Source: a bacterium
GTDB taxonomy: Bacteria; SAR324; NAC60-12
Reading direction: 5' to 3'
Length of the DNA: 64,000 nucleotides
Assembly (NCBI GenBank): GCA_965205865.1
Contig: CBDBHR010000030.1
Location: 256,001-320,000 of the forward strand
Below the pieces are notes generated by a model. It had not been told where the DNA came from and searched no databases. It saw only the letters and a list, made by a program, of their open reading frames with translations. The position numbers were made by a program, and so were the translations under genes. Positions 8,377 to 48,564 of the stretch are shown in pieces. Position 1 is the stretch's first letter. Every line of letters starts with the position of its first letter.

Positions 8377-8424
8377 AATACACCTCCATGTGTTTCGATA
8401 TTACTACACCCTAACCCGGTAAAT

Positions 8425-8790
8425 GGGTCAGGCTTGCAAGTTTGCGAATTTAAGAAAACATTTTTAGGTTAAGTTCTTTTAACCGCTCTTGGAGATTTGT
8501 GGATTCTTTCAATCTTTCTCTCAATTTATGCACTCTACGACTGAAAGTAGAATCATCTCGATTGAGAGCATTTGCCACTTCCCGGATTGTTGCAGATTCC
8601 AATTGAAGACTTATAAAAGCGACGAGAGTCGCTGTCATCGAAATAAGTACGTTGCCCCCCATTACCTCGAAGTATCACATGATAAAGCGTACCAGGGTCG
8701 TACAAACGCGTTTTCCGAGACATCTTGGCAAATTGAAAAAGGTTAAAATTTAAAAAATACTCATTTTTGCAAACTTGCAAGTCTGACCCC
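8425..8790. mobile_element. RAYT/Y1-transposase-derived non-autonomous element, copy 1
   Basis: TIRs GGGTCAGGCTTGCAAGTTTGC...GCAAACTTGCAAGTCTGACCCC. The minus strand carries a RAYT-like N-terminus (MSRKTRLYDPGTLYHVILRGNGGQ..FDDSDSRRFY) joined to a C-terminal HTH-like tail (IREVANALNRDDSTFSRRVHKL). Confidence 0.85.
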
Positions 8791-10888: not shown

Positions 10889-11220
10889 TCACATCTCCTT
10901 GCGGGAGGAAATCACGCGGTCGATCAGACCGAACGCCAAGGTTTCTTCTGCAGTAAACCAATTGTCGCGGTCGATAGCCATTTTGATTTCTTGATAGGTT
11001 TTACCGGTGGCCTGGTAGTAGATATCAATGATGAAATCCCGGGTTTTGAGGATTTCATTGGCTTGGATTTCGAGATCCGTGGCCCGCCCTTGATAGCTGG
11101 TTAAAAGCGGTTGGTGGATCATGATTTTGGAAAGGGAGAAGGCGAAACGACGGCTTTTGTTGGCAGCCAGACTGAGAATCGAGCCCATGCTGGCGGCAAA
11201 TCCGGCAACAATCGTCGTGA
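10889..11220 (-). pseudogene. clpP: 5'-truncated ClpP protease fragment
   Basis: GFAASMGS, IMIHQP and DRDNWFTAEE motifs; the N-terminal part is replaced by element copy 2. Confidence 0.85.
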
Positions 11221-11221
11221 A

Positions 11222-11570
11222 GGGGTCAGGCTTGCAAGTTTGCAATTTAAGAAAACATTATTAGGTTGAGTTCTATTAACCGCTCTTGGAGATTTGTGGA
11301 TTCCTTCAATCTTTCTCTCAACTTATGCACTCCACGACTGATAGTAGAATCATCTCGATTGAGAGCATTTGCCACTTCCCGGATTGTTGCAGATTTCCAA
11401 TCGAAGACTTATAAAAGCGACGAGAGTCGCTGTCGTCGAAAAAATACGTTGGCCCCCATTGCCTCGAAGTATCACATGTTAAAGCGTGCAAGGGTCGTAC
11501 AAACGCGTTTTCCGAGACATCTTGGCAAATTGAAAAATACCCATTTTTGCAAACTTGCACAGCCTGACCC
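11222..11570. mobile_element. RAYT-derived element, copy 2
   Basis: GGGGTCAGGCTTGCAAGTTTGC...GCAAACTTGCACAGCCTGACCC; interior nearly identical to copy 1, same orientation. Confidence 0.85.
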
Positions 11571-11649
11571 GGTTTCTTACGTATTGATGGAATAGTGTTT
11601 TTACCGTTTCACTTCTTGAACTTCATCAAGTGATTTCTTTTCTTTGTGG

Positions 11650-13183: not shown

Positions 13184-14455
13184 ATGAAGAAAGTTATTTT
13201 CAACATATTTCTCGTCATCTGCGTTGCGGGAGTCGCTTTCGCACAGTCGGTCGAAAGCGAGATTCGGGAGTTTGCCGCACGGGAGTATCCCAACGACTCC
13301 CGGATGCGGCAGTATGTTTACAAAGAGCAGATTGCGGCACACCGGTATATGGTTACCGCCAAAGATGCAGACGTTAAGCGAATTGCCATTCGAGAATACC
13401 CGAAAGACTACGCAATGCAGAAATATGCCTATTATGAACAACTCTCAGCAAAACGATACATGACCACCGTGAGAAATCGCGAGGTCAAACGAATTGCTCT
13501 GCGGGAGTATCCGAACGATTATTCCATGCAGAAGTATATATATGATGGGCAGTTGTCAGCAAAACGGTACATGGAAACTGTTTCTGATCAAGACGTGAAG
13601 AGGATGGCGATGCACGAATATCCGAATGATTATTCTATGCAGAAATACATCTATGACAATCAGCTATCGGCAAAGCTGTATATGTCCTCCGTTAGAGATC
13701 ACGAGATCAAATCAATTGCCATGCGGGAGTATCCGAAGGATTATTCGATGCAGAAGTATACATACGATGAGCAATTGTCAGCAAAACGATACATGGAAAC
13801 TGTTTCTGACCAAGACGTAAAGAGGATCGCGTTGCACGAATATCCGAATGACTATTCTATGCAGAAATACACCTATGACACTCAACTCACCTATGATACT
13901 CAACTCGTGGCCGACTTCGAGGCTTGGGTCACTGGAGATCGCTTGTATCGCAGAACATGCCCCAACAGCAAGTGTGGTGTTGTTGGGATTTTAATGTTCA
14001 GGGAAAAGGCAACAGTTTACGAAGAGAAAAACGGTTGGGCCAGAGTGTCGATGTATTACAATGCGGCTTGCCGAAACGGCCTGAGTGAGTACGTTGATTC
14101 AGGCAACGCGGCTTGCACTGAGAGCAACGGCATTGTCGACAGTCGCATTGCTGAATGGGTATCCATTAAGTACCTCAGCAAGACGCGTCCCCCCGATCCG
14201 AGCGCAGGTGCTACAGGAGATTACGCACTTGTTAGTGGCTCAGACGACTACCGCAAATACAAAGATATATTTGCCCGGACAGCCTCCAAGCTCATCGCTT
14301 CTGGCCAGTGCACTGCACGAGACTTTAAAGAAATAGGCGGCTGGCTGAAATCCATGAACTTCAAGGACAGTCCCGTGTACTTTACCTACTGTGGTGGGAT
14401 GATCGTTCAGAACCGGTTGTATCTCAATGCAGCCACCGGGGAAGTATTCAAATAG
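13184..14455 (+). CDS. Secreted protein with six 37-aa tandem repeats and a C-terminal SH3b-like/Cys-rich region
   Basis: Signal MKKVIFNIFLVICVAGVAFA; EYPxDYxMQKYxYDxQLSAKRYM repeated with a 111-nt period; then LYRRTCP..CGVVG...VYEEKNGWARVS. Confidence 0.75.
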   Translation: MKKVIFNIFLVICVAGVAFAQSVESEIREFAAREYPNDSRMRQYVYKEQIAAHRYMVTAKDADVKRIAIREYPKDYAMQKYAYYEQLSAKRYMTTVRNREVKRIALREYPNDYSMQKYIYDGQLSAKRYMETVSDQDVKRMAMHEYPNDYSMQKYIYDNQLSAKLYMSSVRDHEIKSIAMREYPKDYSMQKYTYDEQLSAKRYMETVSDQDVKRIALHEYPNDYSMQKYTYDTQLTYDTQLVADFEAWVTGDRLYRRTCPNSKCGVVGILMFREKATVYEEKNGWARVSMYYNAACRNGLSEYVDSGNAACTESNGIVDSRIAEWVSIKYLSKTRPPDPSAGATGDYALVSGSDDYRKYKDIFARTASKLIASGQCTARDFKEIGGWLKSMNFKDSPVYFTYCGGMIVQNRLYLNAATGEVFK

Positions 14456-14508
14456 ACACATTTGGCTTTGCTTAGCAAATATCATTCTAAAGTGAACGAT
14501 GCTGTGAA

Positions 14509-14817
14509 GGGGTCAGGCTTGCAAGTTTGCGAATTTAAGAAAACATTTTTAGGTTGAGTTCTTTTAACCGCTCTTGGAGATTTGTGGATTCCTTCAATCT
14601 TTCTCTCAACTAATGCACTCCACGACTGAAAGTAGAATCATCTCGATTGAGAGCATTTGCCACTTCCCGGATTGTTGCAGATTTCCAATCGAAGACTGAT
14701 AAAAGCGACGAGAGTCGCTGTCATAGAAAAAATACGTTGGCCCCCATTGCCTGAAGTATCACATGTTAAAGCGTGCAAGGGTCGTACAAACACGTTTTCC
14801 GAGACATCTTGGCAAAT
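14509..14817. mobile_element. RAYT-derived element, copy 3 (right end missing)
   Basis: Left TIR intact; stops at ...GGCAAATT and runs into GTGAAGGGGTCAGGCT of the next copy. Confidence 0.85.
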
Positions 14818-14823
14818 TGTGAA

Positions 14824-15827
14824 GGGGTCAGGCTGTGCGCCAGGAAAGCTGGCAAGAAATAGAGAGTGAAAGTCTCTTACTCGGTAAGGCAGTAACGACC
14901 CGCCGAGTCCCCGAGTCATGAGTGGTTATTCGCAAGGATAGGCGCTAAGCGTTGACAGGGGAGAACATAGGCTCGGTATTGAGCTCCGAAATCATAGTTT
15001 CAGGCGCTGACCTTGTGGTCTGGTGGGGAAGGCAATATCGACCGAAGGCGTTAGCGCGAGTCTCGGTCGAGCCTGGCGGAGTCAAAGACCCGGCGCATGT
15101 GTGGAAGTTTCTTGATCGGAACCTGGGAGATCCTGAAGACGACTGTCAACATTCCATTGGTAGTCGGATCGGGAAAATTAATAAATAACCCCGATATCTA
15201 CGTCTTCAGGAAGTCGGACAAGTTCGTAGTAGCGATGAAGCGGCGAACAATGAGATCATTTGCAGAGAGTAACAATGCAAAGGAAATCAACGGAGCCTGT
15301 GGAGCAAAGGGACTTGGCTGAGAGGAATTCTGCTTGCCCTCCTGTGTTCGTAACTCAGAGGCCGGTAAAATCAGAGAGCGGTTTAAGCAGGGTGCGCCAA
15401 ACGGCAACGTTTGAGCGTCTGACTCGAAGCAGGAGCCGGATGCGTTAGCAGCGCAGGTCCGGATCTGTACCGGAGGAATGACGAAAGGTGGCTGGAAACC
15501 ACTATAAGTCAGTTCTTTACGGTGACTGCAAGTTTGCAAATTTAAGAAAACATTTTTAGTTGGAGTTCTTTTAATCGCTCTTGGACATTTGTGGATTCCT
15601 TCAATCTTTCTCTCAACTTATTCACGCCACGACTGATAGTAGAATCATCTCGATTGAGAGCATTTGCCACTTCCCGGATTTTTGCAGATTTCCAATCAAA
15701 GACTGATAAAAACGACGAGAGTCGCTGCCATCGAAAAAAATATGTTGGCCCCCATTGCCTCGAAGTATTGCATGATAAAGCGTACCAGGGTCGTACAAAC
15801 GCGTTTTCCGAGACATCTTGGCAAATT
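14824..15827. mobile_element. RAYT-derived element, copy 4 (left TIR interrupted by a group II intron; right end missing)
   Basis: GGGGTCAGGCT (14824-34), then the intron, then TGCAAGTTTGC (from 15527); removing the intron restores the TIR exactly. Confidence 0.85.
14835..15526 (+). ncRNA. ORF-less group II intron (IIB-like), 692 nt
   Basis: 5' GTGCG; domain V GAGCCGGATGCGTTAGCAGCGCAGGTCCGGATCT (~15433-66); domain VI ending ...TTTACGGTGAC (AY); no RT ORF. Confidence 0.85.
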
Positions 15828-15832
15828 GTGAC

Positions 15833-16199
15833 GGGGGCAGGCTTGCAAGTTTGCGAATTTAGGAAAACATTTTTAGGTTGAGTTCTTTTAACCGCTCTTG
15901 GAGATTTGTGGATTCCTTCAATCTTTCTCTCAAATTATACACTCCACGACTGAAAGTAGAATCATCTCGCTTGAGAGCATTTGCCTCTTCCCGGATTTTT
16001 GCGGATTTCCAATCAAAGACTAATAAAAACAACGAGAGTCGCTGTCATCGAAAAAAATACGATGGCCCCCATTGCCTCGAAGTATCACATTAAAAAGCGT
16101 ACCAGGGCCGTACAAACGCGTTTTCCGAGACATCTTGGCAAATTGAAAAAGGTTAAAATTTAAAGAATACCCATTTTTTCAAACTTGCAAGCCTGACCC
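15833..16199. mobile_element. RAYT-derived element, copy 5
   Basis: GGGGGCAGGCTTGCAAGTTTGC...CAAACTTGCAAGCCTGACCC. Confidence 0.85.
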
Positions 16200-16203
16200 G
16201 TTT

Positions 16204-16243: not shown

Positions 16244-16267
16244 TATAAATCAGTTCTTTACGGTGAC
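16244..16267 (+). ncRNA. 3' terminal fragment of a second copy of the 14835 intron
   Basis: TATAAATCAGTTCTTTACGGTGAC versus TATAAGTCAGTTCTTTACGGTGAC at 15503-15526; again followed by TGCA. Confidence 0.7.
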
Positions 16268-16497: not shown

Positions 16498-16768
16498 GTA
16501 TGCGGTAACGACCGCTCTTCTAGTGGGTTGAAGTCCCACCAAAGTAATTATCCGTTCGCTTTGTAGGCAACGGGAGCAGCGTGGGAGTAATCTGGGGTTG
16601 TAAGTTCCCGACGCCAAAACAACGGGCCGTAACGAAAGTGAACCTAGATGTAGCCTCGAAACTTGAGTCGAAAGCGCCGACCCTGTGGTCAGAAGGGAAA
16701 GGCTGTTATCTCACGAATTAGACAACGGATTTCTTCGTGAGGGTTTTCCGGGGTAGCAGGGATGGCAC
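16498..16768 (+). ncRNA. 5' fragment (domain I) of a different group II intron
   Basis: Starts GTATGCGG; GGGTTGAAGTCCC; AACGAAAGTGAACC; GCCGA-[CCCTGTGGTCAGAAGGG]-AAAGGC; no domain V downstream. Confidence 0.65.
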
Positions 16769-17095
16769 CGCAAAGAAGAAACGCAAAAAAGCTTCCTCGC
16801 CCGACTGATCAACCCCTTCCATCAGTAGGAATCTCTTCCTCAAAGGTGCCCCCTCAGGGGGCACTTTCTCTCTCGCAATCAGTGTTCCAAAGATTGGTTC
16901 AAATAACGTCTCGTTGTCAAATCGAACGTTATTCTGAGCCGCCATTTTTGCCCCTTGCAGCGAAAATGGTCGGACTCCAGAAATTTGTTATGGAAATTAT
17001 TGAAAATACGCTGTATCTAATAATCCAAATTAGGTGGTTGCAAAAAGGAACCTCTGATGGTAATTTAAAAACCACACACTTATAAAGGAGTTCAC

Positions 17096-17323
17096 ATGGC
17101 AACCGCGGTAAAACTATCAGATGATCTTTATGAAAAAGCAAAGATTCAATCAAAGGTTTTTAAAAGGTCTATTGCTGGTCAAATTGAATACTGGGCAAAA
17201 ATAGGACAAATGATTGAAGAAAATCCCGACCTCCCACTTCCGTTTATTCAAGACATTCTGGTCGGAAGAGAACAGATAAAATCAGGTCAAGGCGCTCCGT
17301 ATGTATTTGGAGAGGGTGAATGA
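17096..17323 (+). CDS. ParD-like antitoxin
   Basis: MATAVKLSDDL...RSIAGQIEYWAKIG..EENPDLP; AAGGAG RBS. Confidence 0.85.
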   Translation: MATAVKLSDDLYEKAKIQSKVFKRSIAGQIEYWAKIGQMIEENPDLPLPFIQDILVGREQIKSGQGAPYVFGEGE

Positions 17324-17610
17324 CCCGGATTACAGAAATAATCCAGTCACCTATTTTTGAAAAACAGAAAAAGAAACTGCGCAAACCGCAGATTAAAGAC
17401 CTGGATAAGGCTGTAAAGTCTATCTCCAATGATCCTACAATCGGAGATATGAAAGTAGGAGATCTGAGGGGTATCCAAGTTTATAAGTACGAATCAAAAA
17501 ATCAGCAGATCCTTTTAGCCTATGAAGTAATTGATTCAACTTTATTTTTATATACGTTTGGATCACATGAAAACTTTTATCGAGATCTGAAAAAATACCT
17601 TCAACGATAA
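17320..17610 (+). CDS. RelE/ParE-family toxin
   Basis: ATGA overlap with the antitoxin; G..K.GDL.G..VYKY...GSHENFYRDLK. Confidence 0.85.
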   Translation: MTRITEIIQSPIFEKQKKKLRKPQIKDLDKAVKSISNDPTIGDMKVGDLRGIQVYKYESKNQQILLAYEVIDSTLFLYTFGSHENFYRDLKKYLQR

Positions 17611-17876
17611 TTCTTCGCCTCCATTCAACTCTATAATAACGTTGAAGTCAGTCGCTTTCAACCCAACCATGGACTGTGATTGAAACGAGTGATTCCATCA
17701 AACACAGAAAAAAATTAGGAGTCGCTAATGAGTGGAAGTCGGTCTGCACTGACTGGTTGGAAAATCCTGCCCAAAACTCATCGATACTTTTTCTTTTTCT
17801 CCTCGACGACTCCGTTTATTCGGTATTCCGTGTTCTTGCTCCGCTCAATGCCCTCATAATTCTGGTTTTCATGAAA

Positions 17877-18241
17877 GGGTCAGGCTTGCAAGTTTGCGAA
17901 TTTAAGAAAACGTTTTTAGGTTGAATTCTTTTAACCGCTCTTGGAGATTTGAGAATTCCTTCAATCTTTCTCTCAACTTATGCGTGCCACGACTGATAGT
18001 AGAATCATCTCGATTGAGAGCATTTGCCACTTCCCGGATTGTTGCGGATTTCCAATCGAAGACTGATAAAAGCGAAGAGAGTCGCTGTCATCGAAAAAAA
18101 TACGTTGGCCTCCATTGCCTCGAAGTATCACATGATAAAGCGTACCAGGGTCGTACAAACGCGTTTTCCGAGACATCTTGGCAAATTGAAAAAGGTTAAA
18201 ATTTAAAAAATACTCTTTTTTGCAAACTTGCAAGCCTGACC
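17877..18241. mobile_element. RAYT-derived element, copy 6
   Basis: GGGTCAGGCTTGCAAGTTTGC...GCAAACTTGCAAGCCTGACC, followed by an extra TTGACCCC. Confidence 0.85.
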
Positions 18242-18336
18242 ACGTTTGACCCCGTTTCAAGCGCTGTCTATCAGGATGAAAAACCTTTCGCGGCCGAGCC
18301 GATCTTTTCCCCATTAAAAACCATGAGTCATAGGCG

Positions 18337-48251: not shown

Positions 48252-48440
48252 CCTGGAGTGACAAAAGGTAATAGCCCAGCCATTTATGGCTGGGGATAGA
48301 TTTTGATGCTGGATCCAGTCCCGGAGGGACGACACTGAAAGCGCACTGAAGAAAAAGTGTCGTCCCTCTGGGACTAAAAACGTTTTGTGGCATGACCCAG
48401 CCATAAATGGCTGGGCTATGCTCTGTCACCCCTCCAGGGT
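48252..48440. repeat. Long palindromic miniature element
   Basis: ATAGCCCAGCCATTTATGGCTGGG / CCCAGCCATAAATGGCTGGGCTAT outer arms; GTCCCGGAGGGACGACAC / GTGTCGTCCCTCTGGGAC inner arms. Confidence 0.75.
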
Positions 48441-48564
48441 TTTCTCACCTTCACCTGTGTGAGATCGAACCGGACCCCTTGGGGGGACCTGATAAATAGC
48501 CTTTGAGGTGTTCACCTGACTAAGCTACCGACTTTAGCTGATGGTCACTTTAACTTTTATGATT

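Follow-up and report, generated by a model that had tools for sequence, protein, structure and literature searches.

Can a group II intron that encodes no protein be mobile, and what would bring it into the end of another mobile element? The question is raised by a window of 64,000 nucleotides (nt), C30:256001-320000 of the 30-contig, 4.74-Mb genome assembly of a SAR324-type bacterium, in which such an intron, free of any long open reading frame (ORF), interrupts a terminal repeat. Coordinates are those of the window unless a contig is named. To the reading that the segment 14835-15526 is a non-autonomous mobile group II intron, a deletion derivative of a 1957-nt intron that uses a reverse transcriptase (RT) in trans and targets the ends of elements known as TIRtrons, we assign a probability of roughly 0.87.

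Intron boundaries and ribozyme structure

The intron occupies 14835-15526 on the plus strand (692 nt, GUGCG...GGUGAC) and is complete as judged from the Rfam model RF02005, its fold and comparison with sister copies. It is preceded by the outer 11-mer GGGGTCAGGCT of the host element's left inverted repeat (14824-14834, plus strand), which contains the intron-binding site IBS1 (CAGGCT, 14829-14834, plus strand), and followed by the inner, family-specific part of the same repeat (TGCAAGTTTGCAAATTTAAG..., 15527-15550, plus strand); both exons were delimited by comparing junctions. With splice borders GGGGTCAGGCT/GTGCG at 14834/14835 and GGTGAC/TGCAAGTTTGC at 15526/15527, the sequences GGGGTCAGGCT and TGCAAGTTTGC directly adjoin each other in copies of this repeat that lack the intron. 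Intron-free GGGGTCAGGCTTGCAAGTTTGC is found in the window at approximately 14509, 11222, 17876 and 8424, the pattern GGTCAGRCYTGCAAG has nine window matches with at most two mismatches as against 0.39 expected from shuffled sequences, and genome-wide the 11-mer continues as TGCAAGTTTGC(A/G) at 26 intron-free sites. Deleting 14835-15526 regenerates GGGGTCAGGCTTGCAAGTTTGC with zero bases gained or lost, and this exact restoration is a signature of retrohoming. A first-pass annotation of the sequence had described a complete ORF-less intron inserted precisely in a terminal repeat, together with a second 3' end of the same intron downstream. The GUGCG end, the RF02005 match, the presence of domains V and VI and the uninterrupted empty sites bear out the former, and the latter corresponds to a relic at 16244-16267 (plus strand) of the family's last 24 nt, with one difference, that abuts TGCATACTTGCG, the inner part of a sibling repeat-end family.

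All ribozyme domains described below lie on the plus strand. The domain I core (14869-15091) matches RF02005 (group-II-D1D4-6), a comparison recommended in the first-pass annotation, over the full model (1-225 of 225) with 173.2 bits (E = 2e-50; gathering score 49), and the loop GGUCUG falls within a terminal hairpin loop of the model structure. A domain II hairpin (CCUGAAGACG...CGUCUUCAGG, 15132-15210) is predicted by the minimum-free-energy and centroid folds. The remnant of domain IV consists of the start codon and first 43 codons of an RT gene (15275-15404, aligned to the 1957-nt copy) and, past a deletion junction at 15404/15405, the final 18 nt of that gene's coding sequence with the TGA stop (15405-15422, aligned with the 1957-nt copy and 16 ORF-less copies). 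The earlier suggestion that the fused first and last codons of an RT ORF survive here is thus right for the 43 codons, in which one residue differs, and for the 18 nt as DNA, but the frame after the junction is not that of the RT, and the peptide 'RSRSRMR' is domain V read out of frame.

Domain V (15433-15465, placed in a 20-sequence alignment) is intact, although it departs from what Rfam models. Each of the 20 clade sequences forms standard pairs at all 12 proposed positions, four of which covary; every one of the 20 has the AGC triad with a G.A facing the triad G, the loop has five bases class-wide, and the helix carries a 2-nt bulge. A G-U opposite the triad in the RT-bearing copies was ruled out, as the change concerned is a C>T at 15465 in the basal pair and the G.A is class-wide. 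The final 95 nt fold into the domain V-like hairpin and a domain VI hairpin with an unpaired A. Domain VI spans 15469-15523, contains an CUUUACGG motif that is conserved in relatives, and offers A 15519, 7 nt before the 3' splice site, as the candidate branch point. In the helix 3' of the putative exon-binding loop, the window copy has compensatory changes (G at 15040 with TC at 15067-68).

The intron family and its RT-bearing parent

BLAST with the 692 nt and subsequent chaining gave 49 intron loci in the genome. Sixteen of these are contiguous ORF-less copies of 689-703 nt, the window copy being 100% or near-identical to the other 15. The cognate RT-bearing intron, for which the first-pass annotation had proposed a search, is found in the same genome as four 1957-nt copies with an open 470-amino-acid (aa) frame and one 2039-nt copy with a broken frame; the other loci include further internal-deletion variants and fragments. 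The 470-aa ORF lies at nt 441-1853 of the 1957-nt intron and scores 342.7 bits with the group II RT/maturase model TIGR04416 (cutoff 300). An endonuclease domain was not detected in this RT, for which Pfam gives RVT_1 only and no HNH, and a search of solved structures returned general relatives only, pointing to no particular intron class, with 7uim_D as the best match (E = 1.4e-43).

All 16 contiguous ORF-less copies have the same primary deletion junction together with a G>C change just before it. Thirteen of them, including that of the window, have undergone a secondary loss of 11 nt, and the other three (702-703 nt) keep 11 extra bases of the RT 3' end. The 698-nt copies of a congeneric genome have the same primary junction and a different secondary loss of 6 nt. 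Since the primary junction is common to all, the ORF was lost a single time, before the lineages diverged or passed the element between them, and multiplication of the derivative came later. One copy on contig 25 differs from the window copy by a single base (99.86% identity) and occupies a different site, in another repeat-end subfamily and behind a poorer 5' exon; the two share the compensated helix and a G in the domain V bulge. The presence of this G in near-identical copies at unrelated sites indicates that an RNA carrying it was copied at least once, and the one-base difference makes it probable that the window copy was copied recently.

Some copies are twintrons, with a 908-nt insert at nt 400/401 in four loci and a 903-nt insert at nt 396/397 in at least one. 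The first type is exemplified by contig 30, 1205702-1207700, where the insert has a weak D1-D4 match, and the second by contig 28, 326018-328023, where it has a weak D1-D4 match and an RF00029 score of 44.2 bits. No long RT-type ORF was seen in either insert, and on sequence grounds we class both as ORF-less introns of group II in their own right.

The host element

The motif GGTCAGGCY occurs in inverted pairs that bound elements of 52, ~76, ~365 and ~1030-1200 bp, and GGGGTCAG stands at both ends of 33 listed elements, in a form that fits GGGGWSAS. The long elements encode proteins of ~320-335 aa, which in one full element (L002) score 53.6 bits with Y1_Tnp (PF01797) and 32.6 bits with Bac_DnaA_C (PF08299); the NCBIfam RAYT model NF047646 gives 70.8 bits, below its cutoff of 80. 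Elements of this kind were named TIRtrons, and their proteins TIRYTs, by Di Nocera et al. (2013, PMC3733652), who describe GGGGWSAS as the common end motif, and Quentin et al. (2018, PMC6006769) assign TIRYTs to subclass 2.1 of TnpA_REP, with C-termini that resemble Bac_DnaA_C (Bac_DnaA_C / HTH_23 / HTH_28). The elements in this genome resemble those in the main texts of both papers in the combination of a Y1 (IS200-like) domain with a Bac_DnaA_C-like helix-turn-helix (HTH), in inverted repeats that start with GGGGTCAG and in moderately abundant repeat-end dimers; they differ in their introns, which those texts do not mention. From domain content and end motif we identify the host as a TIRtron, that is, an element with a Y1 and DnaA_C-like transposase (TIRYT) and its derivatives resembling miniature inverted-repeat transposable elements (MITEs). 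A classical repetitive extragenic palindrome (REP)/RAYT host (REPtron) was rejected, the RAYT score being below the cutoff and the ends being long GGGG inverted repeats without a GTAG tag. Of the original proposal of a non-autonomous host with REP-like termini, the first half stands, the window copies being deleted derivatives of ~1-kb Y1 elements, but TIRtron/TIRYT is the better name for it.

The four window copies of the host (8420-8790, 11217-11575, 14505-16200 and 17872-18243) are internally deleted; of the transposase frame, which runs on the minus strand, no more than ~40 codons remain at either end. The one at 14505-16200 is a head-to-tail array of three such units with a decayed Y1 frame on the minus strand; it has a right inverted repeat in the last unit only (16180-16200), and the left repeat interrupted by the intron is that of unit 2. 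Units 1 and 2 run directly into the next left repeat without a right inverted repeat of their own, which could have arisen through unequal recombination or because a Y1 enzyme of rolling-circle type failed to terminate.

A subfamily structure, in which a common outer 11-mer is combined with differing inner direct 7-8-mers, was observed among these TIRtrons. Each subfamily has its own pair of direct 7-8-nt boxes inside GGGGTCAGGCY (e.g., at 14520-14545), such as TGCAAGT/TTGCAAA, TTTGATTA/TTTGATTA, TCGTTAT/TTCGTTAT or TGAAAGT/TTGAAA, and these boxes may be what the DnaA_C-like HTH of that subfamily binds. Flanks outside the GGGG ends tend to inverse symmetry (gaaa-N-GGGG...CCCC-N-tttc) and show no direct target duplication, which could reflect either a weakly conserved extension of the repeat or an insertion preference for palindromic, A/T-rich sites.

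Target recognition

The exon-binding site EBS1 was placed at GGUCUG in a terminal hairpin loop (15017-15022, plus strand) by alignment to the covariance model (CM) and by covariation with positions -6 to -1 of the 5' exon, where 69 of 72 possible pairs are formed across 12 sequences as against 44 for the next best alignment column. This is the loop named in the first-pass annotation, which had also predicted two G-U pairs with CAGGCT and a better fit to the CAGACT variant of the first host copy. GGUCUG indeed forms two G-U pairs with CAGGCU but a single one with either CAGGCC, the exon at 15 of 40 sites, or CAGACT, and the last variant is present at 8774-8788 on the minus strand. Loop and exon change together in relatives: AGCCUG with a ...CAGGCT-type exon in the congener, UGGCUG with CAGCCA in a genome of the same family (G008), UGGGUG with CACCCA in Endozoicomonas, UGAGCG with CGCTCA in two Acidobacteria, UAAGCG with CGCTTA in Polaromonas and UUAACG with CGTTAA in Singulisphaera. 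An apparent A/U compensation between a GACCC loop (intron nt 63-67) and exon position -7 in this genome and G008 was not borne out by more distant relatives.

Forty-one 5' junctions were listed, of which 40 were scored after an intron-intron tandem junction had been dropped. Compared with GGGGTCAGGCY, 23 of the 40 are exact and eight have one mismatch, followed by six with two, one with three and two with four. The genome-wide collection of copies, another step proposed in the first-pass annotation, thus gave 31 junctions at the repeat-end motif with at most one mismatch instead of a scatter of unrelated sequences. On the 3' side, position +1 is T in 31 of 37 cases, and the exons fall into the families TTTGATTA..., TGCAAGTTTGC..., TGCATA..., TGAAAGTTTG..., TCGTTA... 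and TGTGAC....

Proposed mechanism of spread

The intron derives by one deletion of ~1.25 kb inside domain IV from the 1957-nt intron, which removed nearly all of the RT/maturase gene and was later followed by the secondary 11-nt deletion. The start of the ORF was kept in this event; maturases of studied introns bind that region. The RNA would be spliced and carried in trans by the RT/maturase from the RT-bearing copies and would reverse-splice into DNA with the top strand GGGGTCAGGC(T/C)/T, where EBS1 GGUCUG would pair with positions -6 to -1 and +1 is usually T. Because no endonuclease domain was detected in the RT, the nascent DNA at replication forks would be expected to supply the primer, as it does for other introns that lack an endonuclease. 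Insertion is presumed to be directed at the outer part, of GGGGWSAS type, of the terminal inverted repeat, which is common to several TIRtron subfamilies and their MITE/REPIN-like derivatives. Such a target would give the intron a constant landing point between the outer 11-mer and the subfamily-specific inner repeat, always reading into the element; the window copy lies in a decayed, tandemly arrayed TIRtron remnant. From the copy number, the sites occupied and the near-identical window and contig-25 copies we infer trans-mobilisation by the RT. The family may also be active at present.

Alternative readings

Several observations weigh against a mobile intron guided in this manner. No EBS2 was found when every 5-nt window of the domain I alignment was scanned against exon positions -13 to -6, the best candidate, a U-rich stretch, reaching 41-42 of 60 pairs as against a background of 36-40, and nine of the 40 scored 5' junctions deviate from the 11-mer at two to four positions. 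Four loci hold nt 1-571 only. Contigs covering 13900-15700 from three metatranscriptome libraries and one other run contain no joint across the intron; they break at repeat borders, mostly show the family consensus instead of this copy and are uninformative as to transcription and splicing. Furthermore, four composites of a MITE and an intron, with 759-770 bp between inverted 11-mers, indicate that some copies may have spread at the DNA level. These composites could be extended to an account in which the ORF-less copies are not retromobile and were dispersed passively by TIRYT-moved TIRtron/MITE units, by segmental duplication or by recombination between repeat ends, and both the three identical-flank copies of the congener, which represent a local duplication, and the tandem array that hosts the window copy would fit this account. 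It is difficult to reconcile, however, with a distribution of copies over at least six inner-repeat subfamilies and either end of an asymmetric 76-nt MITE, with upstream flanks that, among the 41 listed junctions, agree in no more than a single pair, with the occurrence of RT-bearing, ORF-less and twintron forms at the same site type, and with near-identical window and contig-25 copies in different subfamilies; we regard passive spread as very improbable.

A different doubt concerns the window copy itself, which might be a dead relic of a mobile family that neither splices nor moves owing to a G at 15456 and its decayed host array. The model of domains V and VI, RF00029, finds no match in this copy at E ≤ 1 as against 31 bits in sister copies, a score that is itself below the gathering score of 40. 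The domain V bulge of the window copy reads AG, with the G at 15456, where most copies have AC and 16 of 20 aligned sequences have C; among these 20 it is the sole bearer of the G, which recurs in two contig-25 copies. Yet one of the bearers is the full copy with 99.86% identity at an unrelated site, which testifies to at least one round of copying, all 12 domain V pairs are intact, and the bulge varies among relatives (AC, AA, CC, UC), such that a dead window copy seems to us somewhat unlikely. The regularity of the 5' exon could finally be explained if GGGGTCAGGCY, which stands ahead of almost every intron copy, were a co-mobilised 5' extension of the intron and not the end of a host transposon. 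GGTCAGGCY has, however, 211 occurrences in the genome, as against ~61 expected from composition, and only 27-29 of them are followed by the intron 5' end. The remaining motifs run into the same repeat-end families as the 3' exons and form inverted pairs around intron-free elements of 52-1200 bp, and the intron starts with the canonical GUGCG, which leaves a 5' extension with a negligible probability. A non-autonomous, RT-dependent intron directed to TIRtron ends thus remains the preferred reading.

Comparison with known introns

Two groups of endonuclease-less introns invite comparison. RmInt1 of Sinorhizobium meliloti reportedly has an RT without an endonuclease domain, reaches high copy number, homes into insertion sequences and uses EBS1, EBS2 and EBS3. 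The family described here resembles it in the endonuclease-less RT, the high copy number and the homing into a repeated mobile element, and differs in that no EBS2 was located and in the class of the target element. Class C (IIC) introns have a CGC triad in domain V and insert just 3' of a local stem-loop. The lack of an endonuclease domain and of an identifiable EBS2, and a target in hairpin-capable DNA, are reminiscent of this class, whereas the AGC triad, the insertion inside one arm of a long-range inverted repeat and the 6-nt IBS1 set the family apart. Membership of class C was rejected, the triad being AGC in 20 of 20 sequences and the DNA upstream of the 11-mer variable, A-rich and not a hairpin.

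The main text of Zimmerly and Semper (PMC4424553) describes introns without an ORF as rare among bacteria and as occurring, in nearly every case, together with related introns that carry an RT. Among the systems in the texts consulted, the closest precedent is the ORF-less TeI3 with the ORF-containing TeI4 of Thermosynechococcus elongatus, for which the main text of Mohr et al. (2010, PMC2882425) reports 17 copies without the ORF that have the same break-points and keep remnants of its ends, as well as twintrons, homing into other mobile elements and an experimental demonstration of trans-mobilisation. As described there, both systems combine one ancestral ORF deletion across dispersed copies (17 there, 16 contiguous here) and ORF-end remnants with cognate RT copies in the same genome, good EBS/IBS pairing, twintrons and a conserved site in a mobile element. 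The T. elongatus RTs, in contrast, have D and En domains, of which no En was detected here, and the EBS of those introns has diversified for different sites, whereas one EBS1 serves almost all copies in this genome. The target here is a transposon inverted-repeat end, and trans-mobilisation, experimental in T. elongatus, is deduced from the genome.

A further point of comparison is the group II intron of Pseudomonas putida KT2440, of which two of nine copies are REP-associated in a table of Tobes & Pareja (2006, PMC1525189). It is likewise linked to the palindromic repeats of Y1 transposases, at a frequency (two of nine) that differs from the 31 of 40 junctions with the repeat-end motif found here. 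Within the main texts that our literature search covered, this entry is the sole link between group II introns and TIRYT, RAYT or REP ends. ORF-less hitch-hiking introns are already known, and the preference for a TIRtron-type end appears not to have been described before; the new aspects are the TIRtron GGGGWSAS end as a target across subfamilies, the lack of a detectable EBS2 and the unusual domain V of the clade.

Relatives in other genomes

The intron is present in three of 41 related genomes searched, this one included. The other two holders are the congener, which has the same ORF-less form at 90% identity in few copies, mostly duplicated or truncated, and one other genus of the family. 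The 5' flanks of the copy at contig 26, 221558-222128, and of one congener locus (G001, L062) are alike (...ACAGCGATTCTCAGGAAGGAAAAA...), which looks like one orthologous insertion inherited by both species that may predate their split.

An RT scan with one genome per species returned 39 loci from several phyla. The introns of Psychrobium, Thiodiazotropha and Endozoicomonas, whose RTs are 53-59% identical, follow AGGGACAG-, GGGGACAC- and AAGGACAC-type exons, that is, exons of the (A/G)GGGAC- or AAGGAC-type, and the altered EBS1 loops of these introns match the exon at positions -5 to -1. In two Gammaproteobacteria, Psychrobium and Thiodiazotropha, and in a deltaproteobacterial metagenome-assembled genome, a Y1-like frame with the orientation of the intron starts ~50-100 nt past the 3' splice site. 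In the metagenome-assembled genome, Pfam Y1_Tnp scores 31.1 bits, above its cutoff; in Psychrobium it scores 19.7 bits, below the cutoff, with a match to a local hidden Markov model (HMM) and an inverted copy of the exon motif downstream; in Thiodiazotropha the frame is recognised by the local HMM only (E = 6e-7). Two other Thiodiazotropha copies adjoin an IS1595 transposase gene and a desaturase gene instead, and the relatives in Acidobacteria, Planctomycetes and Polaromonas have unrelated exons. Owing to these unrelated exons and non-Y1 neighbours, the wider association with TIRtrons is a lead and not a result. We nevertheless tentatively raise the idea, suggested by the exon sequences, the EBS1 loops and the Y1-like neighbours, of a clade of endonuclease-less introns that is specialised on TIRtron GGGGWSAS ends from SAR324-type bacteria to Gammaproteobacteria and would represent a long-lived parasite of a parasite. 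Because no EBS2 is detectable, the protein or another RNA contact may be responsible for reading the constant GG(G/A)(A/T)C at positions -10 to -6. The intron might also exploit a single-stranded or hairpin state of the ends during Y1 transposition at replication forks.

A second intron lineage and other features of the window

Downstream of the array, 16498-16770 (plus strand) carries a 5' fragment, comprising domain I, of a different group II intron that starts with GUAUG and matches RF02005 with 73.5 bits at 16530-16763. It directly follows AGCCTGACC, the opposite strand of the same repeat-end 11-mer, and the loop at its EBS1 position, GGUCAG, is complementary to CUGACC. No full copy of this lineage was found in the genome, only fragments. 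Two intron lineages thus appear, from their junctions and loops, to target the same repeat end on opposite strands.

Three further features stand apart from the introns. The stretch 16756-16842 belongs to a dispersed repeat of 65-88 nt with more than 40 genome copies at ~76-92% identity, unrelated to the intron and the repeat ends. Two small overlapping ORFs (75 and 96 aa) at 17096-17610 (plus strand), between the intron fragment and the next TIRtron remnant, have a toxin-antitoxin-like layout. Finally, a match to the Rfam Acido-Lenti-1 small RNA lies at 48396-48441 (plus strand), with 44.2 bits (gathering 37).

Implications

The best-studied proliferation of ORF-less introns with RT-bearing relatives comes from one cyanobacterium. 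The SAR324-type genome offers a second, independent system, with 49 loci, a common ORF deletion, twintrons and one dominant target site, and what is targeted is the conserved terminus of Y1-transposase elements whose class is poorly understood. Host-element mobility should be affected by an intron that separates the outer motif from the inner repeats. Should the association with TIRtron ends extend across phyla, two problems would become more accessible, namely the reading of the distal 5' exon by endonuclease-less introns that have no EBS2 and the state of the DNA at TIRtron ends in vivo.

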